A stretch of DNA of 64,000 bases from Candidatus Latescibacterota bacterium (GCA_965243025.1 CBDETY010000003.1:5408001-5472000); one strand, 5' to 3'; positions 39,383-63,138 are shown, counted from the stretch's first letter. Made by a program: numbers and translations. The notes: a model not told the origin generated them from the letters alone.

Positions 39383-39405
39383 TCAGGCTGGCACAGCCGA
39401 TCATG

Positions 39406-40669: not shown

Positions 40670-40962
40670 GTATAGGACGTACAAAGGCCCTTTTTTCCTG
40701 AAAGCGCTGGAAGTGATCACGGCTGTCCATATCTCTCACAGGACAGGGGCACAGGTGCCGCTGCCGCTGGCCGAGGGGCTGGATCTGCTAGAAATCCGCC
40801 CGACGGGAGAGTGATCCCGCCGTCCGGAGGGCGTGCTCTCCAACACATCGCTTCGGCTGTCTGGCACGGCAGTTGCAATGTCCGTATGGTAACCGCACGG
40901 GCTGGGTATGCCATGACGACACGATCCATCTGGTGTCTCGCCGGGCTCCTGCCATCAACCCC
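40670..40962 (-). mobile_element. Non-autonomous IS91-like mini-element B, copy 1 (293 bp)
   Basis: Same two ends as 43807-44099, two SNPs; minus strand ends ...GTCCTATAC followed by GTCT, resembling IS91/ISCR oriIS. Confidence 0.75.
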
Positions 40963-41658
40963 ATGGGATGGGGCGGCATCGCTAAGACCATCGGCGCCTG
41001 GTATCCGCCGCACCGACACGGCACGGTCATGGGGTTCGTAAGCATCAATTTTCAGTTCGGCGGTGTGGCGGCAGCGCTGTTTGCGGGCTTCCTGGTTGCA
41101 CAGGGCGTCGGCTGGACCTGGATCACCAAGTTTCTGGTCGACATCGGCATGGTCAACGTGGATGCTCAGATCAGGACCGCCGTGATCGCGGCACTCGGTG
41201 TGCTCGGGACAGTGCTATTAGGTTGGTATACGGATAAGTACGCAAAAGACGGAGACCGGGCGCGGGCCATGTGGATTATGCTGTCGGGACTGGGATTTTG
41301 CCTTCTGGCGGTCGCATTTTTGGCTAACGCGGGAGAGCAGGCGCATATTACGATCGTGATATTGCTGGGGTTGAGCAGCTTCTGTCTGCTGGGACCTTAT
41401 TCCATGAGTTCCGGATGTATAACCCTCGATATTTCCGGGTCCGAAGGGGCCGGCAGTTGCACCGGCATGATCGACGGTGTCGGATACTTCGGCGCCTCCC
41501 TGGCCACCATCGGCGCGGGTGTGATCTCCGACAGCATGGGCTGGAGCCAGGTGTTTGTTATTCTCGCAATATTAGCATTCATAGCCACCGGTGCTGCTTA
41601 TCTGATGAGCCGGGATTACAGGAAAGAATTGGTTCATTTAAAAACAAACGACCAGTGA
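40963..41658 (+). pseudogene. MFS transporter remnant (GlpT/UhpC-like), 5'-truncated with probable internal deletion
   Basis: MGWGGIAKTIGAWYPPHRHGTVMG...; jumps from GVGW to TWITKFL; GSCTGMIDGVGYFGA. Confidence 0.7.
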
Positions 41659-41677
41659 GCACTAAGCGTCTTCAACA

Positions 41678-43105
41678 ATGAATCAATGGAGAAATAGTTT
41701 GTCTAAACTGGATCGTCGCACATTTTTGCGTCATACGGTGATAGCAGCTGGAGCGGTAGCGTTACAGGGACTGGTAACGCGACAGGCGCTGGCAAGAATT
41801 AATACATATCAGAATCTCACGGCATCGTTAGGGGACGGCGGCTACGGACCGCTCTATCCGATGCATTCTGCCAATACGAATGAACTATGTCTGGAACTGC
41901 CTCAGGGATTCCGGTATACCGTCCTGGGTAAAACCGGCTCGATCATGTCCGACGGCAACCCTACGCCCCGGGCCCATGATGGGATGGCTGCGTTTTCGGA
42001 CGGAGACACCATCCGGCTTGTGAGAAATCATGAGATCAACAATCAGCGCGGCAAACCGGGCGTTGCGATCGGTGGCGATGCGCCGGGCTATGATCTCTCC
42101 GCAGGCGCTGGAACGACGACGCTGGTGATCGATCCTGAAAGCCGGGATCTTATCAAAGATTTCGTGAGCCTGAACGGTTCTCTTCACAATTGCGCCGGCG
42201 GCCCTACACCATGGGGAACCTGGATTACGTGCGAAGAGACGACCATGGGCAGAACGATTGTCATAAATAATCGAAATAAAACCCATTACGGCGGATTTAA
42301 CGAAGATCATGGATATTGTCTCGAAGTCTCCGCGCTGGAGAATGAGCCGGTAAAAACACAACCGTTGCGGGAAATGGGGCGGTTCATCCACGAAGCCATC
42401 GCAGTCGATCCCGCGACCAGCATAGTCTATGAGACCGAGGATAATTCGAGGGCGGCGGGTTTTTATCGCTATATCCCTAACGAATCACAAAAACTCGCGG
42501 CTGGTGGCCGGTTGCAGATGCTGGCGGTGAAGGATCAACCTGCCTACGATACCAGAGTAAACCAGACCATGGGCAACGTCCTGCCGGTCACATGGGTGGA
42601 CATCGATAACCCGGATCCTTTGACTGCGAGCACCGATTCATCTGCGGTATATAACCAGGGATACGAAAAGGGCGGCGCGAACTTCAGTCGCCTGGAGGGA
42701 TGCTGGTACAGCAACGGCAGCATCTTCTTTACCTCAACCAGCGGCGGAGATGAAAAACTCGGTCAGATATGGGAATACCGTCCAACGACTGACGGCAACG
42801 GCACGCTGAAGCTGGTTTTCGAGTCGCCGGCGGCGGCGTTGCTGCAATCCCCGGATACTATCTGCGTCAGCCCAAATGGCGGCCTGGTCATCTGTGAAGA
42901 CAGTCCGCCTGAGGTCTACATCCGCGGCCTCACCGTCGAAGGCCGTATATTCGACCTGGCCAAGGATATAGCCGGTATCGAAGCGCGAGGCGAATTTGCC
43001 GGCGCCACGTTCAGCCCCGACGGCCAGACGCTTTTCGTGAATATGCAGCGCCCCGGTATCACCTATGCTATCTGGGGACCGTGGTATAAAGGCGCGCTAC
43101 TGTAA
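41678..43105 (+). CDS. phoX: PhoX-family (DUF839) alkaline phosphatase, Tat-exported
   Basis: Tat motif DRRTFLR; HDGMAAF, LVRNHE, NCAGGPTPWGTWITCEE, MGRFIHEA, RLEGCW, GEFAGATFSPDGQTLFVNMQ. Confidence 0.88.
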   Translation: MNQWRNSLSKLDRRTFLRHTVIAAGAVALQGLVTRQALARINTYQNLTASLGDGGYGPLYPMHSANTNELCLELPQGFRYTVLGKTGSIMSDGNPTPRAHDGMAAFSDGDTIRLVRNHEINNQRGKPGVAIGGDAPGYDLSAGAGTTTLVIDPESRDLIKDFVSLNGSLHNCAGGPTPWGTWITCEETTMGRTIVINNRNKTHYGGFNEDHGYCLEVSALENEPVKTQPLREMGRFIHEAIAVDPATSIVYETEDNSRAAGFYRYIPNESQKLAAGGRLQMLAVKDQPAYDTRVNQTMGNVLPVTWVDIDNPDPLTASTDSSAVYNQGYEKGGANFSRLEGCWYSNGSIFFTSTSGGDEKLGQIWEYRPTTDGNGTLKLVFESPAAALLQSPDTICVSPNGGLVICEDSPPEVYIRGLTVEGRIFDLAKDIAGIEARGEFAGATFSPDGQTLFVNMQRPGITYAIWGPWYKGALL

Positions 43106-43163
43106 TGTGGAATGGGGAGTGCGGAACCACGAAGTGAATGCAAGCACTCCGCACTCCGCATTC
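43106..43163. repeat. Intergenic palindromic heptamer repeat
   Basis: tgtggaa/tggggag/tgcggaa facing cactccg/cactccg/cattctg. Confidence 0.5.
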
Positions 43164-43176
43164 TGAAAGGAATATC

Positions 43177-43806
43177 ATGACAACAGATCATCTCCCCTTA
43201 CGGCGTGTTGATCACATCAAATTCTTTGTCGGCAATGCCCGGCAGTCGGCTTATTTCTACCGCAATGCGTTCGGATTTGATGTGATCGGGTATGGAGGGC
43301 TGGAAACTGGAATGAAGAAGGAGGCGGGGTATGTACTCAAGCAGGGTAATATCACGTTTGTCCTTGTTTCACCGCTTCAGAGCGATCATCCGGACAGTGA
43401 ACGGTTGATGCTGCACGGCGACGGTGTTAAGGATGTGGCGCTGGAGGTGGATGATGTTGCAGCAGCATATGAGGCCACCGTCAGCCGCGGTGCGGTTGGA
43501 ATAACCGAACCGACGGTGATAGAGAACGAGGAGGGCATCTACGAGTTCGCCACGATCCGGACGTACGGCGATACCACGCATACGTTCGTGAACCACGACC
43601 GGTACGAAGGCGTATTAGCGCCCGGCTACCGGCCGATCGACCCGGCGCGGTACAGGGAGGACACGCGGAGACCAGTGGGACTGAGGGCGATTGATCACAT
43701 CGTCGGCAATGTGGAACTGGGTAAGATGGATGAGTGGGTGCATTTCTATGAGCATGTGATGGGGTTTACGCAGCTTATTCATTTCGACGACAACGACATC
43801 AGGAAC
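43177..43806 (+). pseudogene. hppD: 4-hydroxyphenylpyruvate dioxygenase, 3'-truncated by mini-element B
   Basis: DHIKFFVGNARQSA, HGDGVKDVAL, IRTYGDTTHTFV, IDHIVGNVELGKMDEWV..FDDNDI, then element B; remainder absent. Confidence 0.9.
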
Positions 43807-44099
43807 GTATAGGACGTACAAAGGCCCTTTTTTCCTGAAAGCGCTGGAAGTGATCACGGCTGTCCATATCTCTCACAAGACAGGGGCACAGGTGCCGCTG
43901 CCGCTGGCCGAGGGGCTGGATCTGCTAGAAATCCGCTCGACGGGAGAGTGATCCCGCCGTCCGGAGGGCGTGCTCTCCAACACATCGCTTCGGCTGTCTG
44001 GCACGGCAGTTGCAATGTCCGTATGGTAACCGCACGGGCTGGGTATGCCATGACGACACGATCCATCTGGTGTCTCGCCGGGCTCCTGCCATCAACCCC
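43807..44099 (-). mobile_element. Non-autonomous IS91-like mini-element B, copy 2 (293 bp)
   Basis: Direct repeat of 40670-40962; ori-like end CCTATAC abuts GTTC, a canonical IS91-family target tetramer. Confidence 0.78.
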
Positions 44100-44132
44100 C
44101 AGATCGATATAGACTACCGATAAACGACTCTC

Positions 44133-44999
44133 ATGCCGGAAGACGACGGCACCACCGCCCACCCGTGGACGGCTGAAGAGATCCAGGCACGACTCGGCAC
44201 CTCGACCATCGTATTCGAGCGCGACCGGCTCTTGCGATCCGAGGACCTCGCGATGATCGCCGAGAGGGGCATCGAGTACGTCGAACTGTGCGGTCTCGGA
44301 AATCCGGGCCACATGGACATCGACGATCCCAAATACAACGCATGGCTCCGTTCGGAGTGCGAGAAGCAGGGCCTGTCGATCGTGGTGACCCACTGTCCCG
44401 GTTTCCTGTTCAACTCCGACGAAAAGGAGAACCGACGGAAGGCTGTCGCGCAGGGTGTGCAGACGGCGAAGATCTCGGAGGAGTTGGGCGCAGGTATCAT
44501 GGTTTGCCACTTCCGGACCGAGGAGCCCTCGGAGAGAAGCATCCACGAGATGCTCGACCAGCTCCAGGACTGCTCCATCAAGCTCACCATCGAGAACGGT
44601 CGTGACCTGTCAGACTTCACCGCCTTCGTGGACAAGGTGGGTTCCGACCGCTTGGGCATGGTCGTCGACATCGGCCACACGCGGGACGAGGACGAGGTGA
44701 ATCCCTTCACCAAGGCTGAGCGCGCCCGCGAGACTCTGGCGCAGTGTGGAGACCGTCTTCTGCATCTGCACCTTCACGACTGGGTCGACCACGACCACTA
44801 TTCCCCGCTGGACGGCGAGATACACTGGCCCGGCGTGTTCGATGCCCTCAGGGATATCGACTACAAGGGCTACTATATGTTCGAAGCGCTGTACGTACCG
44901 CACAAACGAGGCGAGGAGCTCGAGCCCGACTATGTCCTCGATAAGGTCGCTGCCTTCCCAAATGATTTCGTCGAGCGCTACACTCACCTGGCGAATTGA
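44133..44999 (+). CDS. Sugar phosphate isomerase/epimerase (xylose-isomerase-like TIM barrel)
   Basis: GIEYVEL, LTIEN, VVDIGH, LHLHLHD..DH.SPLDGEIHW, YKGYYMFE. Confidence 0.85.
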   Translation: MPEDDGTTAHPWTAEEIQARLGTSTIVFERDRLLRSEDLAMIAERGIEYVELCGLGNPGHMDIDDPKYNAWLRSECEKQGLSIVVTHCPGFLFNSDEKENRRKAVAQGVQTAKISEELGAGIMVCHFRTEEPSERSIHEMLDQLQDCSIKLTIENGRDLSDFTAFVDKVGSDRLGMVVDIGHTRDEDEVNPFTKAERARETLAQCGDRLLHLHLHDWVDHDHYSPLDGEIHWPGVFDALRDIDYKGYYMFEALYVPHKRGEELEPDYVLDKVAAFPNDFVERYTHLAN

Positions 45000-45152
45000 A
45001 CCGGATGGATGGTCGATCGTCCGCGGGAGTTTGGATTTTTCGACTTCGACCGGGAAGCCTACATTGAGGAGTAACTGGCGCGTCAATAGCTGGAAATTTG
45101 GAGAATACTAATTGTTGGCAGTCGAACAATGGATCGCGGCCAAAACGGGTCA

Positions 45153-45770
45153 ATGACTGACGGCGCTTTGAAGATAACCGAGTCACAGCGGCAGCAGTTC
45201 GATGAAGACGGCTTCTTCCTGGTGGAAGAGGCCCTGGCCCCGGATGAGGTCGATGAACTCATCGAGCTCGTCGACGTGCTGTACGAGAAGTATCGACGTG
45301 AGCGCGACCTCGGTCCCCACAAGCGGTTTCAGATGCGCAACGTTGTAGCGGCCCATCCCCTGTTTCGGCGCCTCATAGACCATCCGGCCATTCTACCGCT
45401 TGTCGTCGACACCATCGGCTTCAACATCCAGCTTCGCACCTCGCACATGGACGTTCGCCCGCCGCAGGAGCTCGAGGACGGCGAAGCCGCCCTGGGGACG
45501 CCCGACAGCTTCTTCCCCTGGCATGCGGACGCCCCAGACTACGGCTGGGCACTGGTCGATGGCGTCATCCCCTTCATGGAGCTGAAGGTGGGCTACTACC
45601 TGACCGATCTCACTGCCCACAACAGCGGCGCCATCTGCGTGGTGCGCGGCAGCCACCGCCAGTCACCGTGGATGGAGAGCGACGGCGAGCGCGTGGCCGA
45701 TCCCGAGCGCATCGTCGAGGTCAACGTGAAGCCGGGAACGGCCATGATCTGGCACACCCAGCTCTACCAC
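45153..45770 (+). pseudogene. PhyH-family dioxygenase, 3'-truncated by mini-element A
   Basis: QFDEDGFFLVEEAL, WHAD, GAICVVRGSH, KPGTAMIWHTQLYHA, then element A. Confidence 0.8.
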
Positions 45771-45839
45771 GCCGGAGGTCTCGACCTCACGTCCCAACCG
45801 ATATAGACTACCAAGAATGGCCGCTTATCAGTCCTATCC
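45771..45839 (+). mobile_element. IS91/ISCR oriIS remnant A (69 bp)
   Basis: Identical to 51375-51443, the terminus downstream of the IS91-type transposase. Confidence 0.85.
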
Positions 45840-46489
45840 GTAAGCAGCGGCTGTTTGCCGCGACGGAAGACCTGCTGGACGACCGTCTCCCGCTCGTCGT
45901 AATCAAAATTCTCAGGCAGGGGCGGGAGCGCGTCGGGAGAAAACCCTTGCGCTTCCGGGCCGGGGATCGCTTTGAACTCGTGGGTGTGCTCGTACTCGCA
46001 GATGTCGTGGGGGTTGACGAGGCCGATCTGGAGATAGAACGGCTTCGACGAATTACGGCTGTCGAGGAAGTCGATCAGAGCGTGGGTGGAGACGCGATCG
46101 TAGTATTCCGCTCCTCCCGCAGCGATGTCCCTGTTGCCCGTGTAGAGGTTTTGGAAGCTGTCTCTCATCGACCGACCGCGTATGTGCCACTTCCCACAGT
46201 GGACGGCGTCGTAGCCGTTCCCGTTCAGGATCTGTCCCAGATCGGGAATGTCCTCGTGCATCAGGCCGGGGTTGAAGCAGACGCCGTTCTCCGATGTGTA
46301 CCGTCCGGTCATCCAACTGGCCCGTGAGGCTGAGCAGACCGGATCGGCACAATAGCTCCGCATGAAGGAGGTCCCGTTGTGGTGCAGGCGATCCATGTGG
46401 GGCGTGCGGACGTGCGGATTGCCGTACGCCGAGACGACATTCCACGTCTGCTGGTCGGTGTTGATGAAGAGGATGTTCGGCCGGTCCAT
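45840..46489 (-). pseudogene. Sulfatase, 3'-truncated at oriIS remnant A
   Basis: RPNILFINTDQQ, CSASRASWMTG (CxxxR), GKWH, NPHD; only about 215 codons remain. Confidence 0.85.
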
Positions 46490-47253
46490 CACGTCCCTCG
46501 CTCGCAGAGGACGTAGGTGGAGAGGATCGTGGAAACGAGGGCTACGTCGCCGGACTCGGTCAGCCACCAGTACGAGGGGGGCAGGCCTTCGCCGGAAAGC
46601 ACGTGTCCAGTCAGCTTGTGTGATGCGAAGGTCCACGTCTCGAGGGGATGGATCCGGCAGCCGAGTTTGAGCGTTTCGAGGTCTTCGAGGATGGAGAATC
46701 CATCACCCCCGCCGGTCAGTGTCGGGAGGACGTCGAGGAGGGCCCAGATGGTCGTCAGCGGCGTGCCGGGCGGCACCTCACCTGCTTCGAACGAGAGTCC
46801 ACGCGAGGTGGTGAGCGAGATCGTCGCCCCCTCGATCGATCCCTTCCAGTCGACTTCGCTGTACACGCCGTCGGCGACGTTATGTGCCAGAATCCGCCAG
46901 GGGCTGCGGAGTGGACGGAGCGGTTCGTCGCCGCAGGTGAAGTCGAGGGTGAGGCGCTCGCCGCTCGGCGCGTTGTCGTGGATGACGCGATAACGCCATC
47001 CGGATTCGGCCAGTGTTCGCTCGACGAGGAGTGATCCGATGCTGAACTGGGCGCTGTGCGTCGCGTCCTCATTGTAACCACACCAGAAGTTGGGGAGGAT
47101 CGTGTAGCTGTGCGTCTTGGCGGATGCGTTTGGATCGACAGATGGGGAGGAGAGGGCTTCGGATAAAGGCTGTGAGAGCTCGGAGCGGACGTCCCAGTGA
47201 TCCGTCTGGGCCGTGTAGTCGACGCTCCAGTGCAGGTCGCTCACGTCGCGCAT
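46489..47253 (-). CDS. Hypothetical protein
   Basis: 254 aa ORF with host-like codon usage, stop overlaps the sulfatase start. Confidence 0.6.
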   Translation of the reverse strand: MRDVSDLHWSVDYTAQTDHWDVRSELSQPLSEALSSPSVDPNASAKTHSYTILPNFWCGYNEDATHSAQFSIGSLLVERTLAESGWRYRVIHDNAPSGERLTLDFTCGDEPLRPLRSPWRILAHNVADGVYSEVDWKGSIEGATISLTTSRGLSFEAGEVPPGTPLTTIWALLDVLPTLTGGGDGFSILEDLETLKLGCRIHPLETWTFASHKLTGHVLSGEGLPPSYWWLTESGDVALVSTILSTYVLCERGT

Positions 47254-47551
47254 CTCAGATTGAGGCGACTGTCAGAAAGAGAAATCGAAAAGGTGTAGGA
47301 CCGACGTGAAATCGGCTCTCCCGTAGAATGCAATAGCACCCATATCTGCTGAGTGTACTCCACCCGGCAAGATGATGCGAGATCGGTAGAAATGGCGAGC
47401 AGCCAACTATTCTGAACGACCATTCGTCATCTGCACAGATCGTGTTGACGTGGTTCTGGCGGCGCCATAGTATACCGAGCGGATACGGATAGCTCGCTGA
47501 GAGACTGTGCTCGTGAGTTCCTCGTGCATTTCAAGCAAGCGGAGGGAAACC

Positions 47552-50212
47552 ATGGCAGACGCCCTGAGAAGCGTCAACACATTGTTGAGAAGGCCACCGT
47601 CGAGGTCTGCAACAGCGCTGATGCCGCTCGCAATCGTCGGTGTATTGGTACTGTCTCCCCTTGTCACGCCAGCCGCCGCTCGAACGGAGGCATTTGAAGT
47701 CGGTGATGCCAACAAAGACCAGCTGCCAACCGGCAAGGAGGCTGACGGCATACTCGGCGACTTCGTGATGCGGAATGACCTGATCGAAGCGACTATCTCA
47801 GGCGATCTGCCAAGACGCAAGGCGAATATTGCCGCGTTTTACGCTGCCATCACACCGGGCTGCGTGTATGATCTCTCCGTACGAGGTTCCAGAAACGACC
47901 AACTCACCCTGTTTTCCCCGTCTTTCCAGCACGGGGATGTCAATTATGTCCGAATCCTGGATGGTGGGAAGTCGGGCAAAGCGAGCATTGAGACGGTCGT
48001 ATCTGCGGCCAGGAACAGTGGTCTCTACAAGCGCCATCTCTATCACCTCCAGGATGGCTGGCGAGGCCTTCTCATCGAGACGACCCTGCGCAACGAAGCC
48101 GATTCGACCCACCGAGTCGGCACGGAGGACCGGCTCGAAGATCAGGCCGATGCCCGCAACGTGGGTGAGAATACGGTCATCTACATTACTGATCCGGCGG
48201 ACAAGGCGGGGTACGCATTCGGTTGGGTCGGTGAAGCGCCGGCCGATACACTGGAGCTGCTGCCCGGTCAGGAGGTCACCTACAAGCGCTTTCTGGCTGT
48301 CGGCACATCTCCCGCAGAGGCATACGGACTGGTGGTCCAGCGCCAGGGCGAATTCGGCACTGTTTCGGGTGTGATTGTCGGTCCCAGCGGGAAAGGCGTA
48401 CCGACGGCACACATCGAGATAACAAGCGACGACGATACACTGGCAACCTATCCCGATGCTGACGGCAGGTTCAATTTTGCACTGCGACCGGGATCGTACG
48501 ATTTCCTAGTGACGGACGTGGGACGAGCAGAGGTACGTCAATCGTTGGCGCTAGTCTCCGGTGAGGTCCGATCGCTGAGTTTTGAGATGGACCGGGCCTC
48601 CACCGTCGCCCTGGACATTCGCGATGAGGACAGCGGGAGCATCCCCTGTAAGGTCCAATTCATTGGCATTGAGGGCAGCGAGTCACCCGATCTGGGACCC
48701 AGAACAAGGGCGCACGGGTGTCTCGACCAGTATCACTCGGAGACTGGTCAGTTCGAAGTGCAGGTTCCGCCGGGAGATTACCGCGTTGTGGTAACCCGCG
48801 GCATCGAGTTCGGCCATCTCGAGAAGGAGATACAACTGCGTCCGGGTCGTACCGAGAAAATTCGGGGTGTACTCCGCCGGCTCGTGGACACAGAGGGTTG
48901 GGTCAGTACCGACTTCCACAACCACTCGACGCCCAGCGGCGACAATGTGACCAACTCCCGCGACCGCGTAATCAACCTGGCGGCAGAGCACATAGAATTC
49001 GCGCCAACAACCGAGCACAATCGGCTCTACGATTGGCAGCCGTTCATCGACGAGCTGGGTCTGGCCGACGAGGTTGTGACGATCCCTGGCCTCGAGTTGA
49101 CCGTGAAGGGTCCCCACCTCAACGCCTTCCCATTTGTTCCGGACCCGTACGCTCAGGATGGGGGAGCTCCGCAACGACAGCTGAGGTATCTCTGGCCAGC
49201 TGCCCCGAGATACACCGATCCTCGGATCAACGCCATCCTGCTGCGCGATTTTCAGCGTTCGTCGGAAGACCTCATGCCGGAGCGATGGGTCCACCTCAAC
49301 CACCCGAACATGTCGTTGAATTTTGTCGACCGGGACAAGGACGGTCGAGAAGATGGCGGCTACCGCGGGTTGGCTGCGTTGATTGACGGGTCCGAGTTGT
49401 GTGGGTTTTGGACCTGTACGGAGAGGGGTGAGGACATACTGGCTCGTTCACCGTGGCGGATCGTGACTCGAGACGAGGAGGAGTTAGTGCGGCATCGTCG
49501 CGAGTTCATCTGGCTGCAGTTGCTCAATCGCGGTCATCGTTATACCGCCATCGCAGTATCCGACGCACATACGATCCACGGTAACGGCGTCGGCGGCTGG
49601 AGAACATACATTACTAGCAGCAGCGATCGACCGGCCGATATCGACTGGAAAGAGGTCGTAGGCAATGCCAAAGCCGGTCAGGCTCTGATCACCAACGGTC
49701 CCTTCCTCAGGGTCGAGACGGTCGACGGTACGTTGCCGGGAGGCAGTGCGCGAGCGCAGGGATCAATCGCACTGCGTATCGAGGTACAGTGCACTGACTG
49801 GATCGACATCGACCGCGTCCAGATCCTCGTCAACGGCCGGCAGCAGCCGGATCTCAACTTCACGAAGGAATCTCATCGCGACTGGTTCAGCGATGGCGTG
49901 GTGAAATTCAGCCGAGTCATCGACGTACCCCTAAGTCAGGACAGTCATATAATCATTGCCGCTATAGGCGAAAACTCGGATCTGTCGGTTGGGTACGGCA
50001 GCAGTTGGCAGGCACGGATGAAGCCGGTGGCCTACACGAATCCGATCTGGGTCGATGTGGACGGAGGCGGATTCGTGCCTAACGGGGATGATCTCGGTTG
50101 GGACTTGCCCGTAATGGAGAAGGCTCCATCTTGGCGCGGTCGTCCCAGTAAGACGGTGGAGGAAGTACGCAAGATGCTTCTAGCCGCCGGGCTGGACGAT
50201 TCTGGCGTCTAG
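47552..50212 (+). CDS. Secreted CehA/McbA-like PHP metallohydrolase with carboxypeptidase-regulatory-like domains
   Basis: GGAGG RBS; signal peptide; GWVSTDFHNHSTPSGD, PTTEHN, HLNAFP, LNHP, AVSDAH, ITNGPFL, AYTNPIWVDVDG. Confidence 0.8.
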   Translation: MADALRSVNTLLRRPPSRSATALMPLAIVGVLVLSPLVTPAAARTEAFEVGDANKDQLPTGKEADGILGDFVMRNDLIEATISGDLPRRKANIAAFYAAITPGCVYDLSVRGSRNDQLTLFSPSFQHGDVNYVRILDGGKSGKASIETVVSAARNSGLYKRHLYHLQDGWRGLLIETTLRNEADSTHRVGTEDRLEDQADARNVGENTVIYITDPADKAGYAFGWVGEAPADTLELLPGQEVTYKRFLAVGTSPAEAYGLVVQRQGEFGTVSGVIVGPSGKGVPTAHIEITSDDDTLATYPDADGRFNFALRPGSYDFLVTDVGRAEVRQSLALVSGEVRSLSFEMDRASTVALDIRDEDSGSIPCKVQFIGIEGSESPDLGPRTRAHGCLDQYHSETGQFEVQVPPGDYRVVVTRGIEFGHLEKEIQLRPGRTEKIRGVLRRLVDTEGWVSTDFHNHSTPSGDNVTNSRDRVINLAAEHIEFAPTTEHNRLYDWQPFIDELGLADEVVTIPGLELTVKGPHLNAFPFVPDPYAQDGGAPQRQLRYLWPAAPRYTDPRINAILLRDFQRSSEDLMPERWVHLNHPNMSLNFVDRDKDGREDGGYRGLAALIDGSELCGFWTCTERGEDILARSPWRIVTRDEEELVRHRREFIWLQLLNRGHRYTAIAVSDAHTIHGNGVGGWRTYITSSSDRPADIDWKEVVGNAKAGQALITNGPFLRVETVDGTLPGGSARAQGSIALRIEVQCTDWIDIDRVQILVNGRQQPDLNFTKESHRDWFSDGVVKFSRVIDVPLSQDSHIIIAAIGENSDLSVGYGSSWQARMKPVAYTNPIWVDVDGGGFVPNGDDLGWDLPVMEKAPSWRGRPSKTVEEVRKMLLAAGLDDSGV

Positions 50213-51228: not shown

Positions 51229-51384
51229 TCCGGACGCACCGCCGTAGGATCCGTACGCCTGAATCGTCCTTTCGGGCCTGAAAACTCCCAAGAATTTGTC
51301 GCTCAACCCAACCCCGCCCGCAATCCATGCTCACCATCGGCCGGTGAGCCTCGCGCAGCATCCATCCCCGTCGAGCCGGAGGTC

Positions 51385-51413: not shown

Positions 51414-51446
51414 ACCAAGAATGGCCGCTTATCAGTCCTATCCGTC

Positions 51447-53174: not shown

Positions 53175-53502
53175 GAGTCATCGTAAGTTATTGATTTTTT
53201 TCGATTAATGAGTAAACCTTCAGAATGTATCACAGCTCCGTTCTGAATCTCCTACATGGAATCAGAATTTTCCTTGACCTGCCGCGTTTAAATCAGTACT
53301 TACTAGCATTAGCATTCTCAGAGTGCCGCTCTGTGCTTGAACGAAGCGCGCGAAGGGGGTGAGCTCGGGTACCAGAACGCAACAGCTAACATCTGAACTT
53401 TATTTCATCTCAATCCACCCTTTCACATCACATCCTTAGCTAAGGAGTAGTATCATGGTTGGTCCAGTATCGGCCTTGGGGGAACGGGAGGAAGTAGTTT
53501 TC

Positions 53503-54420: not shown

Positions 54421-54443
54421 TCAGGCTGGCACAGCCGATCATG

Positions 54444-54480
54444 AGGGATGGATCCGATTACCGGGTCCATCCCTTTTTTT
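54444..54480 (+). terminator. Intrinsic terminator
   Basis: Same hairpin + T7 as 39406-39442. Confidence 0.88.
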
Positions 54481-54525
54481 CGTACATTTCGCGGTATCTC
54501 GGTGTCTACGCGAAGCACGAACGGA

Positions 54526-54793
54526 GTCTCGCGCGATTTGTATATCGGATCCCAGTAAGTGGCCAATGCAATGCGTCACCAAAATCAGCGATCCAACTTC
54601 GCTCCCGATGGTATGGCTGGATATCGGGAACCACCAGGATGACATCATAATCCGACAACGCATCGACGTCCGAGTTGGGGTAGGCTCGCGTGCTGGTCAA
54701 TAACATGGCCCTGACGGCAGGCCGGGCATGTGCCCATTCCAACAATTTCGCAACCACCGAATCATCGCGAAGCTCATCTGGTAAGGAACTCAT
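54526..54793 (-). pseudogene. 5' fragment of an aminoglycoside 6-adenylyltransferase-like nucleotidyltransferase
   Basis: VRAMLLTSTRA...VDALSDYDVILVV...WIADFGD; 5-bp duplication (caatg x2, 54564-54573) shifts frame; truncated at 54526. Confidence 0.7.
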
Positions 54794-56406
54794 GCAACTC
54801 TCTTACTCTCGCGAACTCGTTGTCGAGCGAACGTCCGTTAATGATCAGCATCGCTGTGATGTCACCGGAGTTGTCGCGGACGAACTGGACAACCGATGCG
54901 AACCAGAGACTGCCTCTGAACTCGTCGCGCTCCAGGGGACACAGCTCGATCGCCTGGTGACGACGATGCTTGGCGATGAGCGTTTCACCGCGCAATTCGA
55001 CCGAATAGACAGCATCGAGCTCCTCGCTGTAATACCGGCCTTCGAATGCGCGCAATTCCTCGGCGGACGGATTCCACGCTTCCACCCGCTTCCTCTCGAT
55101 ATCACGGTAGTCGAGGTGTGTTACCTGGCCACTGGCATTCCGGCGGAATCTCATGGCGGCGTTATATGCCGGTACGTAGAACTCCTCTTGCGATATCGCG
55201 ACCATCGGAAATCGGGACTCACGTGTCGCCTGAGTCATCAGTTGATCTCCATCGCGTGTAATCTCCAGTAACAAACCGGGGTCGAGCCTGTAAGTGCCGA
55301 CATAGCTGTCAAGCGTTGCCGCATCAACCGGCACTGAGTCTTCCGGTCCTGGCTTATCGTCTCGTTCTCGACCGTGAGAACATCGGCAAGATACATATCC
55401 GCGATCTGATAGGCCGAGCGCGAGGGATTGAAACTCGAAGAATTCCCCAGGACAACAATGCCCAATCGCTGCTCCGGGAAGTGGAGCAGCGTCGTACTAA
55501 ACCCGGCCCAGGAGCCGTCATGGGATGCAGTTGGTTGTCCGCGGTACTCACCGATGTTTAGACCATATGCATAGGAAATCGTGTCTCCGTTGTTGAGCAC
55601 ACCACGGGTTCTCATCCGTTCGATTACAGCGGGACCGCCGACAACAGCCGCATCGAAGTTCGTCACCCACTTGCCAAGATCGTCTACAGTAGAGAACAGA
55701 GAGCTCGAGCCGAGGGCCGTGAGGCCGTTCATGACAGCCTCGTAGTGGCCGTCATTCCCGCCATACCCGTACACCCTGCGGGGGACGACTTCTGAATGGT
55801 CATCGTGGAAGTGGGTATCATTCATCCCGAGCGGTGCGAAGAGGTTTTCGTGTGTCCACTCACGAAAGCTCTTGCCCGTGACTCGTGAGACCAGCTCAGC
55901 TAGAAGATTGTATCCCGTGTTCGAGTACAGATGGCGCTCGCCAGGAGTGAAGTTCAACGTCTTCTGGTGATACGCCATGGTCAGGATCTGACTGAAAGAG
56001 ATCACGTCGTCCATTTGCCATCCGGCTATGGCAAGTGTTCCCACCCAGTCTCGTACCCCGCTTATGTGGTGGAGAAGATGGCGAACAGTGATGGTCTTAC
56101 CGAAGTCGGAAAGCTCATGGATGTAGTCCCTGATATCATCGTCGGGATGCAACTTGCCCCCTCGACAAGCATGCTGATCGCCATACCGGCGAACTGCTTC
56201 GACACCGAGGCGATGTCAAACACCGACTCGGGCGTGATCGAGATCTGGTGCTCAATATTGGCGCTTCCATATCCCTTTCGGTGGAGCACCACTCCATCCT
56301 TTATGACAAGAACGGCCGCGCCGGGCTTATCAGGTTGGTCCATCTCTACAAACAAGGCGTCGATCTGAGCCGAAAGAGAGTCGCCCTGCGTCGAAGTACG
56401 ATTCAC
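54774..56406 (-). pseudogene. Serine hydrolase (class C beta-lactamase/PBP-like) with C-terminal DUF3471-like domains, two frameshifts
   Basis: FDIASVSKQF (SxxK), ITVRHLLHHISG, YSNTGY, HDGSWAGF split over three consecutive ORFs (56062-56406, 55238-56152, 54774-55334). Confidence 0.82.
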
Positions 56407-56990: not shown

Positions 56991-57072
56991 TCCCGCCCAT
57001 CCAGGACAGTGTAAATTTGGATGACTCCCTTAAGACTATGAGGTTGATGGAGAAAATAGGGGAGATCTCTAG

Positions 57073-58629
57073 CAGGCCGTTGAAAATCCGGGTTATTCCG
57101 GAAACCCCGGACGTCGCGGATGTATGATTTCCTTTCCCAAGAAAATCGGTTATCAGGCTAAACATTCCCATTTATAGAAATGGTCCCGAAAAGGACAGCT
57201 CAACAATCGCAAATAACCGAAAATTCGACCCAAAAGAGCGTTTGCGCGATCGGCAAAAGTCGAGAAAACCGATGCCAATCCATACAACCCTTTCGGCGTT
57301 CCCTTTCCGGTGAGCTTGCGCATCACCAGCCCGAGATTGAAGGCGCCGCCATGAATACACAGACGCTTGTAGATGTTGGTGTGGCCGCGCAGGTGAGTGC
57401 GGCGCATGCCTCCCGTTTCGTAGGTATGAGCGAAACTGCGCTCCACGTGCTCGGCGCGAAGCCGCTGCAGCCTCTTGCCGCGGTCTCCCCGTATACGCCG
57501 ACGATTCGCATACACCGCCGTCTTGGCCGGCGCATCCTTCTTCCAGTTGCGCCGACCGCGATCCGGTTCGGCCACGTAGCTGCGGATCTCCGCCGTCCTC
57601 AGCATCTTCATCGTGTCATTGCTGTGATACCCCCGGTCCGCCACCACTTCGCTCAGCCTGATCTGCTCATCGACACCGACCTCTTTCAGGCTGCGGTCCG
57701 CCTGCACCAGACTCCACAGCAGCGACGCGGTATCCCCTTCATCGGCGCCGCACACCTGCAGGGCCACCAGCGCCTGCGTGTCCAGATCGACCGTATGTTC
57801 GGCCTTGTGGGCCATATGCGTGCGGCCGTCTTTCATCCTGGTTATGCGGGCCTCCCGATCATGGGGATGCGCCCAGTCCCGGTTGGACGCCTTGTTGGCC
57901 CGCTTGCGGTCGAGCCGGGCCACCTCCTGCCGGGTCGGCTCCGGAATGCCTTCGGCCCGGGCCAACCCTTCCAGATACTCGCGGTAGCCCTGGCCCGTAT
58001 CCCGGCGCACGATGCTGCGCATCGCCGCGTTGGCCTCCAGCGTGGTGGCGTCCACCGCCACCGTCTTTCCCTGCAGCAGGTCCCGGTCGGACAACACCTT
58101 CAGCACCCAGTCGAAGACCGCTTCGTGCACCGCTTCGGGCAGGCGCTGACGAATACGCGACAGGCTCGAATGATCCGGGGTGGACTCGGTCAGGGCGTAG
58201 CCGAGAAAGCGACGCAGAGCCAACGAATCGGCGACCCGCCAGGCAATGGCCCGCTCCGATCCCAGGCCTTCGAAATAGCCGATCATGAGCATGCGGAAAT
58301 ACACCCCGGGAGCAATACTGGGACGGCCCAACCTCTGGGCGTAATACGGGGCGCACTGCTCTTCTACAAAGGAATCAAACCCATGCTCTTCCAGCAGCCG
58401 GTTGAGTTGGGTGTAAAACGGATGGCTCGGGGTCTCGGGGAGGGTATGGGTCGGCACCCAGATCTCCTGCTGCTGACTTTTCCGACGTTTGCTCATCGAC
58501 ATCACCGGCCTCCTTGGGGCATCGGCTCGTTTTTCTTGGATCTTTCATAAATCTAGAAAAGGGCGGGTACGACGGGCAATCGTCTGAGGCTATGTTTTTA
58601 TTAGGAAATAGGACTTTTTCAACAGCCTG
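57073..58629 (-). mobile_element. IS5/IS1182-type insertion sequence
   Basis: IRs CAGGC(C/T)GTTGAAAA; CTAG duplicated on both sides (57069-57072, 58630-58633); GC-rich element inside AT-rich DNA. Confidence 0.9.
57153..58505 (-). CDS. IS5/IS1182-type DDE transposase (DUF772 N-terminus)
   Basis: GRPSIAP..YFRMLMIGYFEG..SER, TPDHSSLSRIR, VAVDAT, VVADRGY, RAEHVERSFAH. Confidence 0.92.
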   Translation of the reverse strand: MMSMSKRRKSQQQEIWVPTHTLPETPSHPFYTQLNRLLEEHGFDSFVEEQCAPYYAQRLGRPSIAPGVYFRMLMIGYFEGLGSERAIAWRVADSLALRRFLGYALTESTPDHSSLSRIRQRLPEAVHEAVFDWVLKVLSDRDLLQGKTVAVDATTLEANAAMRSIVRRDTGQGYREYLEGLARAEGIPEPTRQEVARLDRKRANKASNRDWAHPHDREARITRMKDGRTHMAHKAEHTVDLDTQALVALQVCGADEGDTASLLWSLVQADRSLKEVGVDEQIRLSEVVADRGYHSNDTMKMLRTAEIRSYVAEPDRGRRNWKKDAPAKTAVYANRRRIRGDRGKRLQRLRAEHVERSFAHTYETGGMRRTHLRGHTNIYKRLCIHGGAFNLGLVMRKLTGKGTPKGLYGLASVFSTFADRANALLGRIFGYLRLLSCPFRDHFYKWECLA

Positions 58630-58850
58630 CTAGTGTTTAGTAGAGGATCGTCTTATTAAGAGAATTAGCCCAGATTAAGACAAGTATATATTAGTAACGG
58701 ACCACCAAAGTGTGGGGTAAATCGAGGAAAGGAACAAAAAACATCCCCAACCGTAGTTCAGGCACCCCTGCCTAAACGCTTCGGCAAGGGCCGAAGCTAC
58801 GAGTGGTTCGTTGTAAGATCATGTTTGGAAGAGCACTTGAGGAGGTTCGG

Positions 58851-59654
58851 ATGGACAAGGATAGAATAGTTTTACCCACATGCGAAGTCAGCATGGACCC
58901 TGAGACAGCCATTGAGATGGGGAGAAGCTGGGGAATAAAACACTTTGAGATAAAGACCCTATGGGAAAATAGAAGAATACCCTTTATAACGGAGGAGCAG
59001 AAAGATCATCTGAAACGCGTGGTAAAGGACTACGGCGTAGATATAACCGCTATCTCTCCGGGGTTGTTTATCGGCAGCGAAGCAAGGGAAGATTTAGCAA
59101 AGAAAGAGCTTGATGAGAAGTTACCCCTCAGCATAGATCTTGCAAAAGAACTTGATGTTAAGATAATGGTCATATTCAGTTTCAGGAAGGCCGAGAGGGT
59201 GGAGGAAAGTTGGGTAATAGACAAACTTGGAAAAGTAGTTGACGCCGCTAAGGACGCCGAAATAACTCTCGTAATAGAGCCTTTGATTGGCAACTACTGC
59301 GATAGTGGGGGGGCTCTAAGCAGAGTTATTAGAGGGGTGGGCAGCGATACTCTTCGTGTAAACTGGGACGCCGGAAACGTTGCTAAAGCCGGTTATAAAG
59401 CTTTTCCAGATGAGTATGACCAAGTAAAAGACCTGGTGTCGTATGTTCACCTAAAAAACTATTCATCCACCGGTGACAAGTGGGCTGTCTTTGACGAAGG
59501 AGATATTGACCTTAAAGCCCAACTGGATGCTTTAGGTAAAGATGGTTACAATGGTTATTTGTCGATTGAAACACACACCAGATATAACAAGAGCTTCCAG
59601 CCGGTTTTGGAGGCGAGTAAGTGGAATTTCGATATTTTAACCAAGTGGAGATAA
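58851..59654 (+). CDS. Sugar phosphate isomerase/epimerase TIM barrel, low GC
   Basis: GAGGAGG RBS; LVIEP, VNWDAGN, YVHLKN, GDIDLKAQL, GYNGYLSIETH; ATA/AGA-rich codons. Confidence 0.85.
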   Translation: MDKDRIVLPTCEVSMDPETAIEMGRSWGIKHFEIKTLWENRRIPFITEEQKDHLKRVVKDYGVDITAISPGLFIGSEAREDLAKKELDEKLPLSIDLAKELDVKIMVIFSFRKAERVEESWVIDKLGKVVDAAKDAEITLVIEPLIGNYCDSGGALSRVIRGVGSDTLRVNWDAGNVAKAGYKAFPDEYDQVKDLVSYVHLKNYSSTGDKWAVFDEGDIDLKAQLDALGKDGYNGYLSIETHTRYNKSFQPVLEASKWNFDILTKWR

Positions 59655-59881: not shown

Positions 59882-61660
59882 TCACTTCCTTCCGCCGATG
59901 GTGGTCCCGTGGGTGCGCTCGGGTGCGTCGGGCGCTCGATCGATCATGCGGTTGGGTCGCCCGTCCTGCTTGACGAGATCGAAGGCGTCGTAGAGCTCTC
60001 CGGTGGCGGTCATCGCGCGGTATTCGAGCGTGTCTCCATTGACGGAGATGACCTGGTAGAGCTGCGTGTTCTCCGCCGCGCGGTCCCACCATTTGTTCGG
60101 GGTGAGCTTGTACTGCTTGGGTCCGCTCACGGAGACGACGTACACGGTGCCGATGTCCGCGTCGGTGGCACTGACCCCGGTGGGCAGGTTCCGGCCGCGA
60201 CCGTACGCGTGGTCATGTCCCGTGAAGACGAGGTCGACGCGATACTTGTCGAAGATGGGCTTCCACAGCTCGCGCAGGCCTTTATTGTCCCGGCCCTCCG
60301 CTGTGGAGTAGATGGGATGGTGGAAGGTGATGAAGGTCCACCGGTTCGGGTTGTCGCTCAGGACGTGTTCGAGCCAGGGCGCCTGGGCGTCGCGCTTCTC
60401 GTTGGAGTTGAGGGAGATGATACGGACGCCCTGGTAGTCGACGTAGTAGACGGATTCCTCGAGTCCCTCGATGCCTCCCTCGGGAAGGGTGAAGTGAGGG
60501 CGCCAGAGCCGGGAGAGACGCCGGGGTAGATTCGTGTGGGTAACGGAACCGTGATCCCAATGTCCAGAGGTATTATTATCGACCGCTCTTTGGGGACCTC
60601 CTCCAGGATATGTACTGGACTGTCTCGCTATCTTGCCGAGGGCTACATTTGTGAGTGTAGCTTCTGCGGATTCTTCGTCTTTACCCCCCATCACCTGGAC
60701 TTCAGCTAAGGAGAGATAGTCCTTTCCCGCTAATTCTATGCGAACATAGCGACCCTTTTTGTTGTTGAGGGGAATAGTCACGGAGGGATTTGGAGGATTC
60801 TTGATATGCGCAACTCTCGACCCTGATACCGTTACGTAAAAATTGGCCAATCGCTCCCCGCAGCAGTCCGTCCGATTCCAGATAACAATAGAATCGATGA
60901 GGTATTCTTCCCCGAGATCGACTTCCCACCATACACTCTGTACGCTTGTGGTGTCCGTGGCGTACTCGTGGTTCCCGGGTGACGGAATGCCGGGAACTGT
61001 CGCGTGGATCCAGCCCCCGGATTCGAACCATTCGCCCCACTCGATGTCCCGGTTGGGGCGATTGACGAGGTCTCCCGCGTGGAGCAGAAAGGCAGCGTCC
61101 GGCGCATCGGAGTAGGCTTCGCGGATGGTGCGCGACCAGAGGGACAGGAGGTTGTTCTGGGCGTCTCCGAAGTAGACGAACGAAAACGGTTCCGCCTTGT
61201 TACTGGCGGTCTCGAACTGAAGCCACTCGCTCCAGAAGTCGCCGCCGCCGACCCGGTAGCCGTAGGTCGTGGCCGGAGTCAGACCGGTCACGACAGCGGA
61301 GTGGTAGAGGGCGACGCCGTTCTCGGTCTCCACTCGCTCGGACTTCGCCGACACTTTGCTCGCATTCAGAAAGAACTTGGGCGAGGCCGTGGCAGGAGCG
61401 ATCTCGACGACAGGCTCGGCCATCGTCGTGTCCGTCCGCCAGGTGACCGCAATCGAGGTGGCCGGATCGCCCTTGAAGTTGAGAACGATGCGATCGGGCA
61501 GGGGCGACGGCCGGGGATCGTGAGCCGCCGTTCCGTATGAGGCGTTGAGCTGGGCTTTGTGATCGGGGGCGGGCTGCTTCACCGCGCAGGATACCGCCAG
61601 GGCCATAACCGACAGACCTGCAACGAGTTGCCGGATCGTGAGGAAGGGAGATCGGGCCAT
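59882..61660 (-). CDS. Purple acid phosphatase-family lipoprotein (FN3-like + metallophosphoesterase) with an in-frame fucolectin/F5-8-type insertion
   Basis: Lipobox LAVSC; YFGDAQN, HAGDLVN, PGNHEY, TFHHP, TGHDHAYGR motifs all present; AGGAG RBS. Confidence 0.85.
   Translation of the reverse strand: MARSPFLTIRQLVAGLSVMALAVSCAVKQPAPDHKAQLNASYGTAAHDPRPSPLPDRIVLNFKGDPATSIAVTWRTDTTMAEPVVEIAPATASPKFFLNASKVSAKSERVETENGVALYHSAVVTGLTPATTYGYRVGGGDFWSEWLQFETASNKAEPFSFVYFGDAQNNLLSLWSRTIREAYSDAPDAAFLLHAGDLVNRPNRDIEWGEWFESGGWIHATVPGIPSPGNHEYATDTTSVQSVWWEVDLGEEYLIDSIVIWNRTDCCGERLANFYVTVSGSRVAHIKNPPNPSVTIPLNNKKGRYVRIELAGKDYLSLAEVQVMGGKDEESAEATLTNVALGKIARQSSTYPGGGPQRAVDNNTSGHWDHGSVTHTNLPRRLSRLWRPHFTLPEGGIEGLEESVYYVDYQGVRIISLNSNEKRDAQAPWLEHVLSDNPNRWTFITFHHPIYSTAEGRDNKGLRELWKPIFDKYRVDLVFTGHDHAYGRGRNLPTGVSATDADIGTVYVVSVSGPKQYKLTPNKWWDRAAENTQLYQVISVNGDTLEYRAMTATGELYDAFDLVKQDGRPNRMIDRAPDAPERTHGTTIGGRK
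60527..60950 (-). other. Lower-GC in-frame insertion encoding a circularly permuted fucolectin (FTP/F5-8 type C) domain
   Basis: WWEVDLG...IWNRTDCCGERL...GRYVRI...LSLAEVQV precedes NVALGKIARQSST...RAVD...SVTHT, the reverse of the native order; boundaries +/- ~10 bp. Confidence 0.8.
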
Positions 61661-61699
61661 TTCTAGAGACTCCTGAAAGGGTGACACCCGGTGTGGAAC

Positions 61700-61770
61700 G
61701 GATAGGACTGATAAGCGGCCATTCTTGGTAGTCTATATCGGTTGGGACGTGAGGTCGAGACCTCCGGCTC
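61700..61770 (-). mobile_element. IS91/ISCR oriIS remnant A (71 bp)
   Basis: Reverse complement of 51373-51443; end CCTATCC abuts GTTC. Confidence 0.85.
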
Positions 61771-61928
61771 AACCCGCGTAGCGGGTTGGCGAAGTCCAAG
61801 CGGCGAATGCCGCGCTGCATTAACCCGCTGTTAGAGGTGCGTTGGATTTTTGCTCTCCAAACTCAAATACTAAGAGCCTATTCGGAGATTTCTATACTCG
61901 AAACTCATCTGAATACGGGTGTTCAGAA

Positions 61929-62879
61929 TCAATGGGGGGCAGTCGGATAGGTCCCGTCCAGAGCCCGCTCCCGATCGCGGCGCACCCTGGCCAGATAATC
62001 GCACATCGGCTCGATCTCAAACTCCGCGATTAACTCATCGGTGCTCTTATGCGGCAAGTGTGAGCGCAGCGTCAACAGACACTCGTCACCGAGATGCTCC
62101 GCCGTTGCAGCGTCCGGACCGTAGCGTTCAAACAAGGACCGCACGCGCTGGATGTTGCCGTCGTGATGCACCACCCGCATATCGAGATCGAGGTCGGCAC
62201 TGATCAGCGGCGCCATGCCGGTCTCATCGCTGGTTCGGCGCGGCACACTGCGAATGAGCCGCCCGGCCGGATCAATAAACGAGCTGCCGCCGGCAAATAC
62301 CCCCGCCATATAAAAACCAAACTCAATAGCCCAGCGGCTCATCATCCGTACGCCCGTCCACATGGATGACCAGACGACCAGCTCGGGGCGGTTAGCGCAG
62401 GTTGCATGTCCTACTTCCCAGTAGTTGATATCAAAGCAGATGGTCAAAGCAATGCGGCCAAAGTCGGTTTCAAAAACAGGGGTTTCCGTGCCGGGGATAA
62501 TGCCCAGGTCCAGCTCTGGATGGGTCGGCATGTTTTTGTGATGCACGCCAACCACTTGGCCCGCACGGTCGATGAGGATGGAACTGTTGCGGCGCTTGTC
62601 ACCTTCCATAATTGCCTGCGGAATTACAACATACACCGAATGGGTGCGGGCGGCAGCAGCCATGGCCGTAACCGTGGGGCCGTCGAGTTCTTCAAAGACC
62701 CATGCGTCGGGCGCGCCCAGATAAGAGCAGATCTCCGGAAAGACAACGAGGTCGGCCTTTTGTGAGGCGGCCTGGGTTATGTGCATCCCCATCTTGTCAA
62801 GGGTTTTGGATAGCCGGTCAGGGTCATCGCCTGCAACCGGGCTGTAGCTGACCAGAGAAACAGTCGCGTTCCGATTCAT
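61929..62879 (-). CDS. Carbon-nitrogen hydrolase (nitrilase superfamily)
   Basis: ADLVVFPE, RNSSILIDR, HHKNMP, TICFD catalytic E-K-C triad; start ATG 62879. Confidence 0.88.
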   Translation of the reverse strand: MNRNATVSLVSYSPVAGDDPDRLSKTLDKMGMHITQAASQKADLVVFPEICSYLGAPDAWVFEELDGPTVTAMAAAARTHSVYVVIPQAIMEGDKRRNSSILIDRAGQVVGVHHKNMPTHPELDLGIIPGTETPVFETDFGRIALTICFDINYWEVGHATCANRPELVVWSSMWTGVRMMSRWAIEFGFYMAGVFAGGSSFIDPAGRLIRSVPRRTSDETGMAPLISADLDLDMRVVHHDGNIQRVRSLFERYGPDAATAEHLGDECLLTLRSHLPHKSTDELIAEFEIEPMCDYLARVRRDRERALDGTYPTAPH

Positions 62880-62941
62880 TATGCTTCCCGTTTTATTCCC
62901 ATTACTCCTAACGTTTTGCCGCTTTGCGAATCGCTCTGAGC

Positions 62942-63138
62942 GTATAGGACTGATAAGCGGCCATTCTTGGTAGTCTATATCGGTTGGGACGTGAGGTCGA
63001 GACCTCCGGCTCGACGGGGATGGATGCTGCGCGAGGCTCACCGGCCGATGGTGAGCATGGATTGCGGGCGGGGTTGGGTTGAGCGACAAATTCTTGGGAG
63101 TTTTCAGGCCCGAAAGGACGATTCAGGCGTACGGATCC
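62942..63138 (-). mobile_element. IS91/ISCR oriIS remnant A (197 bp)
   Basis: Reverse complement of 51247-51443 with one terminal difference (CCTATAC); abuts GCTC. Confidence 0.85.

Follow-up and report, generated by a model that had tools for sequence, protein, structure and literature searches.

Gene mobilisation by insertion sequences (IS) of the IS91 and ISCR groups is widely invoked for antibiotic-resistance genes. By family definition, IS91-family elements end at their 3' boundary in oriIS, the origin (ori) end, as set out in a section of PMC13181058; according to the same section, termination failure amounts to 1-14% for IS91, IS1294 and IS1294b, the 82 terminal bp of the ori end plus the adjacent tetranucleotide served as a sufficient IS91 right end, and the IS91-type target motifs given there all have T at position 2. 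One-ended transposition of IS91, truncated genes abutting the oriIS of ISCR elements, and partial or tandem ISCR copies are already in print (passages of PMC13181058 and PMC6218425), and an excerpt of PMC4778049 deals with Helitrons that inserted beside truncated copies or joined other copies end to end. Direct evidence for ISCR transposition is stated to be lacking in portions of PMC6218425 and PMC9376610, and the evidence for IS91-type transduction is called circumstantial in a portion of PMC4778049. In this study we examined an array of IS91-type ori ends and gene fragments at positions 40,670 to 63,138 of a stretch of 64,000 nucleotides (nt) from Candidatus Latescibacterota bacterium (GCA_965243025.1, CBDETY010000003.1:5408001-5472000), the whole of which we refer to as the window. 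The region is best read as a fossil field of IS91-family rolling-circle elements within a strain-specific island.

Six ori ends and the bases beyond them

A sequence-only reading of the window had pointed to six termini carrying CCTAT(C/A)C, and this observation was confirmed as a whole: all six are present at the positions named. CCTATMC is present 13 times in the window, where 7.7 occurrences are expected; as 8 of 100 shuffled sequences reach the same count, the heptamer carries no weight by itself. Long repeats, two copies of a family A and four of a family B (Table 1), have their precise termini at the six named sites, which score at E<=7e-7 with R1, a model of IS91-type ori ends built from sequence only, the next-best match in the window being 44091-44134 (E=0.12). 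The remaining seven heptamers are not repeat ends and have no R1 match. No extra copy of either family was found anywhere else in the genome (G000).

Copies of family B have a common core of 71-76 nt at 99-100% identity, extended to 198-202 nt (99% identity) between B2 and B4, and the inner start of B4 lies about 19 nt past the expected position of the transposase stop. The inner ends of B1 and B3 differ in position by no more than 5 nt and lie next to the subterminal palindrome of the ori end (GTCGAG...CTCGAC / GGAGGTC..GACCTC). Family A is a mosaic, ori-like only in its last ~36 nt and otherwise made of captured gene debris, with coinciding inner edges in A1 and A2. Its non-ori part includes a segment homologous to a locus of G013, in our reading the 3' terminal part of a gene, and apparently 17 codons from a further one.

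B2 terminates 217 nt beyond the stop codon of the Y2 transposase remnant of the window, which matches positions 88-178 of the 183 of the Pfam domain Y2_Tnp at 50608-51228 and in which the N-terminal Zn domain (Zn_Tnp_IS91) is absent, in agreement with the earlier statement that half a transposase is left. Full-length-type relatives (L010 and L014) hold both domains or are near full length. We compared 22 related loci from G001, G002, G010, G012, G016 and G029, each holding the 3' part of a transposase gene, and found an end of the form CCTAT(A/C)C or CCTAACC 200-300 nt 3' of the gene in 12 of them; copies inside one genome diverge directly past the CCTAT(A/C)C-type motif. Because the motif marks the 3' boundary behind the transposase genes of these relatives, the A and B termini are identified by homology as IS91-family oriIS ends, equivalent to the tnpA-distal ends of full-length relatives, as had been proposed. 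We take CCTATAC to be the published ISCR/IS91 ori consensus. A search of the G000 genome revealed two sizeable transposase remnants, the window copy and another at C3:3439819-3440256, interrupted by another IS, plus a few tiny pieces, and no intact IS91 transposase.

The tetramers that follow the six termini (GTCT, GTTC, GTAA, GTCA, GTTC and GCTC, with T second in five of six) had been read correctly and taken for insertion targets, a proposal that the comparison of copies does not bear out. GT follows CCTATCC in all family-B copies so ending, and also ends both A copies, three A-like copies of G001 and two metagenome copies, B4 being the exception with GC (CCTATACGC). Past GT, the flanks of nine A-type and B-type copies ending in this way are all different. 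Homology to the sulfatase, both with the paralog and with the ortholog of G002, begins at the first base after ...CCTATCCGT (...CCGT), and both parents read TG where the B1 copy has GT. Similarly, homology to the barrel gene (its first copy and G013) begins 2 nt past ...CCTATCCGT, where the parents read CAG or CAA. In another subfamily the same two positions hold TT, and in the B-like copies of G001 they hold TC. Since the first two bases are repeat-borne and the parents of the two cut flanks checked have no GT, the tetramer does not appear to be a target; it would consist of two element bases and two flank bases, unlike the GTTC/CTTG target of IS91.

Cut genes, permuted copies and the surrounding island

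Unrelated DNA is joined exactly at the ori termini. As the sequence-only reading had noted, five genes (HPPD, PhyH, sulfatase, MFS and barrel gene) are cut and not resumed, and the transposase gene itself is also cut. The C-terminal remainder of PhyH was not found in the island, its sole tblastn match in the window (E=2.3, at ~9150) lying outside the island, and all significant matches being elsewhere in the genome, at other PhyH homologs. No coding frame for the MFS N-terminus occurs beyond A1, and our reading of the translation suggests that an internal stretch of this transporter is missing too. At the HPPD locus only one VOC domain was detected, although a C-terminal domain could escape PF00903, and no homolog of the fragment was found among 40 other genomes of the family, hence there is no full-length reference. 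The sulfatase fragment is 95.7% identical to an intact paralog at C3:2633460-2634919. In G002 the orthologs of the sulfatase and of the 901-aa gene lie a few kb apart in an order differing from that of the window, and the G002 sulfatase locus has its own copy in G000, with the sulfatase whole and the 901-aa gene absent.

The ends form three direct (head-to-tail) ori-cargo-ori pairs: A2...A1 (3137 nt), B1...B2 (5604 nt) and B4...B3 (1242 nt). Around B2 stands a second copy of the local operon in the order c'-tnpA'-ori/b'-x', the order in copy 1 and in the syntenic contig of G013 being b-x-c. Judged by this order, copy 2 is a circular permutation of copy 1, permuted at the ori/b' joint, an arrangement that a circular or tandem intermediate would produce. 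The segments 38594-39487 and 39552-39814, which are 99.9-100% identical to copy 2, lie beside a segment of 87% identity. At 38593/38594, copy 1 of the gene behind the barrel gene is without its 5' end; copy 1 has been rearranged too, given that in copy 2 the homology to G013 extends upstream by another 128 nt.

Other samples hold the same ends on other flanks. A contig of a sponge-metagenome run (X1), from a related strain, contains A2 and the TIM-barrel gene over 1234 nt with one difference, crossing the A2 inner edge, and has the A2 terminus (43805) connected with opposite-strand position 54761. A contig of this run is without the DDE IS at 57069-58629 and represents an empty site. Two metagenome contigs (L037 and L038) have B ends, 100% identical over 60-69 nt, on two further flanks. 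On the former (L037:1537-1762), the B end lies 12 nt from four ~29-nt repeats with 60-61 nt spacing, resembling a CRISPR array. Every repeat edge, with its flank, is reproduced in contigs of the isolate runs (X15 and X18). A joint 45788>51598 in X15/X18 was discounted, one side being only 22 nt, and a piece of X2 (62673-62969) was not counted as bridging, as it extends only 29 nt past the B4 terminus. At 45655-45657, ~115 nt before B1, the X1 and X18 contigs depart from the window inside the PhyH gene, which suggests a variant allele or arrangement.

Synteny with the congeners G001 and G002 ends at window position 12104 and is picked up 71.6 kb later. The island so defined, from 12105 to ~83698 (L011:19698), is absent from both congeners, in which its flanks lie ~235 nt apart. 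GC content is 61.1% in the island and 57.6% in the array region, against 65.4% in the chromosome. No tRNA genes occur at the island borders and no direct repeats there exceed chance; neither an integrase nor a conjugation gene was found in the subset of island open reading frames (ORFs) scanned. The island is rich in PhyH, TIM-barrel and type IX secretion system (T9SS)-tagged genes. At 24020-25194 and 28700-29873, inverted ~1.17-kb copies of a DDE_3/HTH IS bracket a 904-aa T9SS-tagged gene in a composite-transposon-like arrangement; dozens of copies of this IS occur in G002 at 93-96% identity.

Table 1. Ori ends, genes and other features of the array region (window positions)
Feature	Position	Strand	Description
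A1	40668-40962	-	family-A ori-end repeat, 295 nt, 99% identical to A2; terminus 40668 (...GTCCTATACGT)
MFS transporter pseudogene	40963-41658	+	5' part lost at A1 inner edge
PhoX alkaline phosphatase gene	41678-43105	+	full length; Pfam 11-515 of 515
HPPD-like dioxygenase fragment	43138-43804	+	N-terminal VOC domain only; cut at A2 terminus
A2	43805-44099	-	second family-A ori-end repeat, 295 nt; terminus 43805
Candidate seventh ori end	44091-44134	+	possible degenerate B-like remnant (weak), without terminal heptamer; best sub-threshold R1 match
Xylose-isomerase-like TIM-barrel gene	44133-44999	+	intact
PhyH dioxygenase gene	45129-45770	+	lacks ~85 C-terminal residues of G018 homolog; cut at B1 inner edge
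B1	45771-45841	+	71-nt solo family-B ori end; terminus 45841 (...GTCCTATCCGT)
Sulfatase 5' half and upstream region	45842-47304	-	Pfam 1-181 of 301; cut at B1 terminus
CarboxypepD_reg-domain protein gene	47507-50212	+	901 aa, intact; ~96% identical to G002 gene
c'	50317-50579	+	263 nt, 100% copy of 39552-39814; fused to truncated transposase gene
IS91-family Y2 transposase gene, 3' part	50581-51228	+	aligns to residues 192-406 of 406-aa relative
B2	51247-51445 (ori-end region from 51229)	+	family-B ori end adjoining transposase remnant of cut-down element; terminus 51445
Outer-barrel-like gene	51447-53174	+	C-terminal 570 of 984 aa; 87% identity with 36729-38592; cut at B2 terminus
x', second copy of gene behind barrel gene	53455-54525	+	53632-54525 99.9% identical to 38594-39487
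Beta-lactamase-family/DUF3471 hydrolase pseudogene	54774-56152	-	N-terminally short; two frames
DDE-transposase IS	57067-58637 (also given as 57069-58629)	-	unrelated; ~10 genome copies
Second TIM-barrel gene	58803-59654	+	intact
Purple-acid-phosphatase-like gene	59882-61687	-	intact; probable start ~37 nt past B3 terminus, on ori strand
B3	61698-61773	-	76-nt solo family-B ori end; terminus 61698
CN-hydrolase gene	61929-62885	-	intact; paralog C3:6556475-6557435 homologous from start to stop codon
B4	62941-63138	-	~200-nt solo family-B ori end; terminus 62941 (...CCTATACGC)

Ori arrays in related genomes and the origin of the array

Co-oriented ori arrays are common in relatives, and the uniqueness implied by the sequence-only reading was not upheld. 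R1 identified 94 ori ends in four genomes (10 in G000, 32 in G001, 18 in G002 and 34 in G016), and 38 of the 41 neighbouring pairs lying <=10 kb apart are co-oriented by our own count, in which related genomes are not independent. A replication-strand bias was rejected as the cause in G000, where + strand ori ends occur in both replichores. At L036:1453-7891 of G001, five co-oriented ends lie within 6.2 kb in the order A-like end, truncated tnpA with B-like end, 608-aa gene with a solo 213-nt B-like end, A-like end, GDSL lipase and metallophosphatase genes, A-like end; the solo 213-nt end begins at the transposase stop codon and the last A-like end bears a 27-nt terminal duplication. Outside the window, G000 holds a second cluster at C3:3433168-3458067, with three co-oriented ends (3433235, 3440538 and 3458067) and transposase crumbs nearby. 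Straight after the last of these ends, C3:3458059-3458157 contains 11 tandem copies of CCTATACTT (the heptamer plus TT), which look like stuttering at the nick site, or slippage.

We consider it probable, though well short of certain, that the array, now inactive, is composed of ori-anchored copies from rolling-circle transposition that stopped early or late, landed or re-joined head to tail, with additional rearrangements at the nick site. In the order of events that we infer, an IS91-type HUH transposase would nick the ori end, here ...CCTAT(A/C)C plus two more bases, and peel off the strand leading back through its own gene. An early stop would leave ori-anchored copies without the transposase side, the probable source of the 36-, 71-, 76-, ~200- and 865-nt copies observed here, and a late stop would drag adjacent DNA along in one-ended transposition. 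Such copies would land, or be re-joined, head to tail beside earlier ones, and the nick site would also drive local rearrangements. As an outcome, some flanking genes would have been dragged in, others would be cut targets and others intact neighbours.

The earlier interpretation, a Helitron-like array of captured cargo assembled by ori ends acted on in trans, was partly supported. As G000 is without an intact IS91 transposase, the array would be a fossil, now immobile, and any action in trans would belong to the past or to a donor. Regarding the whole array as captured cargo goes too far, given that terminus-side DNA is the target in the IS91 model and that several flanking genes are intact. 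The statement that none of the ends is a simple insertion stands for A2, B1 and B2, with unrelated DNA on their two sides, and not for B3 and B4, beside which the CN-hydrolase and phosphatase genes are intact. The likeness to Helitrons holds for the mechanism and not for membership, since no helicase domain was detected in any window ORF scanned and the genome is bacterial.

Several observations weigh against our reconstruction. No event in G000 is assignable to an enzyme, no copy in the window extends to the 5' (terIS) boundary, and a cognate transposase for family A was found neither in G000, G001 and G013 nor by a 29-mer scan of contigs. The A and B ends fold no better than shuffled sequences (z-scores -0.01 to -1.27). 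GTTC occurs in just two of the six tetramers, and there is no sign of the canonical IS91 signature, in which GTTC or CTTG is supplied by the target; GT moves as part of the repeat, and neither of the two cut flanks that allowed a check has it in its parent sequence. Furthermore, there are breakpoints without an ori at 38593, 50316, 50580 and 54525, besides the internal loss in the MFS gene. Short copies could have arisen by deletion instead of early termination. A truncation bias does speak for our reading: the transposase gene starts at residue 123 or later in 14 of the 22 related loci and at residue 33 or earlier in 8, and of 57 Y2_Tnp matches in five genomes, 46 extend to the C-terminal limit of the profile, the N-terminal Zn domain being matched 16 times. 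These counts are weakened because the loci were selected for the 3' half and the hidden Markov model splits some complete proteins (L007). B3 and B4 may be simple mini-element insertions, a possibility arising from the intact genes beside them. Finally, the X15 and X18 contigs break off 30 nt into the repeats, none of which they span, and do not prove the pairing of flanks.

The last point bears on assembly misjoins at short repeats, an explanation that the failure of these contigs to bridge would favour, but that we find scarcely credible: the repeats are short (71-300 nt), the genome is assembled in three contigs and its chromosome contig measures 6.78 Mb, the isolate contigs contain every repeat edge with its own flank, the independent metagenome contig X1 spans the A2 inner edge, and similar arrays occur in other assemblies. 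Passive ori ends, the mosaic resulting from generic island turnover and homologous recombination between repeats, would account for identical repeats in both direct and inverted orientation, for segments of 99.9-100% identity beside others of 87%, which suggest gene conversion, and for the several breakpoints without an ori. Yet the joining of unrelated DNA to the very last base of a repeat is not a product of homologous recombination, the same end stands on at least five different flanks, and the X1 joint between 43805 and 54761 has no explanatory repeat at its second endpoint, the d/d' repeat predicting a joint at 40406; this makes the scenario very improbable. Independent fixed mini-elements, ori-only units of 71-76, ~200 and 295 nt similar to miniature inverted-repeat transposable elements (MITEs), in a decaying island whose genes were cut by unrelated deletions or other IS, fit the identical inner edge of A1 and A2, the B1 and B3 ends at most 5 nt apart beside the palindrome, the intergenic position of B3 directly after a terminator-like hairpin, and the presence of other IS in the region. 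We nevertheless regard them as quite unlikely, given that A2, B1 and B2 have unrelated sides with the cut at the terminus to the base, that the missing gene halves are not on the far side, and that B2 is accompanied by a transposase remnant of variable length, like many of its relatives.

Two further scenarios assign the ori ends a more active role. DNA between co-oriented ends might be a mobilisable unit, the transposase starting at one nick and stopping at the next, so that arrays grow head to tail in an integron-like manner, with expression of each following gene possibly driven from the ori region upstream of it. The three ori-cargo-ori pairs of the window, the five co-oriented ends within 6.2 kb of G001 and the co-orientation of 38 of 41 neighbouring pairs agree with such cassettes, as do the intact phosphatase, CN-hydrolase and G001 GDSL lipase genes, which have ribosome-binding sites and start 13-55 nt past an ori terminus on the same strand, and outward promoters are documented in the oriIS region of ISCR1 (in a passage of PMC6218425). 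However, no cassette was met in two contexts, the A1 cargo and part of the B2 unit are antisense to the ori and composed of gene fragments, a sigma-70 scan of 61500-63300 gave 0 sites with a model that may not suit this phylum, and the circles themselves were not observed; the scenario is thus clearly unlikely. It is also rather unlikely, although worth stating, that the IS91 ori end of this lineage is a stand-alone recombination site serving as both start and stop, at which a transposase acting in trans would excise inter-ori circles and reinsert them beside another ori. If true, arrays of co-oriented metabolic genes resembling those of integrons would be built up, and a promoter might be provided by the ori region upstream. 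Of transposase-dependent rolling-circle transposition with circular intermediates there are indirect traces, namely the permuted operon copy, the alternative flanks and the tandem reiteration of terminal bases.

Comparison with described systems

No published account of such arrays was found in a keyword literature search, which cannot show absence. New here are the host lineage, the metabolic cargo, the predominance of solo minimal ori ends, the co-oriented arrays and the two element-borne bases past the heptamer. The lineage constitutes a natural record of dozens of ori ends, with many truncation lengths, base-exact joints, alternative flanks and arrays with metabolic genes, and the pattern records the cutting, dragging along and reshuffling of ordinary metabolic genes by IS91-type elements. 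The lineage also supplies ends of defined length (36, 71 and ~200 nt) for use as substrates, and its relatives contain full-length candidates for the transposase, making it possible to approach the position of the nick, whether the ori also acts as a terminator, and the minimal sufficient ori length.

The locus resembles IS91, IS801 and IS1294 in its Y2 transposase remnant, in an ori end located 200-300 nt 3' of the gene and in a conserved terminal motif with a subterminal palindrome. As in the IS91 family, joints are exact at the ori terminus and neighbouring DNA is carried, and the ~70-80 nt of ori kept here are comparable to the 82-bp IS91 right end given in part of the literature cited above. 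In contrast, the array has neither an intact transposase nor a copy reaching terIS and consists mostly of ori-only copies, the two bases after the heptamer are element-borne without a GTTC/CTTG consensus, and the host is an environmental (marine) bacterium of the FCB group. In ISCR elements, including ISCR1 of complex class 1 integrons and ISCR2 with tet(X), sul2 and floR, a variable region, often with truncated genes, likewise abuts oriIS, both intact and partial copies are known, as are tandem structures, and the oriIS region can drive downstream genes (from portions of PMC6218425). The cargo here comprises phosphatases, dioxygenases and hydrolases instead of resistance genes, the ends are mostly solo, chromosomal and from a non-clinical lineage, and the remnant is of IS91/Y2_Tnp type by Pfam only.

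With Helitrons the array shares the rolling-circle mode, in which imprecise termination yields truncated copies and captured gene fragments (as described in part of PMC4778049), but Helitrons are eukaryotic and use a Rep-helicase transposase, so that the likeness is one of mechanism and not of membership. Integron cassette arrays are also series of co-oriented genes, each followed by a short recombination site; they depend on a tyrosine recombinase, whereas an HUH enzyme would have acted here, where neither attC nor integrase occurs and many of the "cassettes" are gene fragments, and the comparison is therefore one of analogy, between co-oriented genes that alternate with short sites in both systems.

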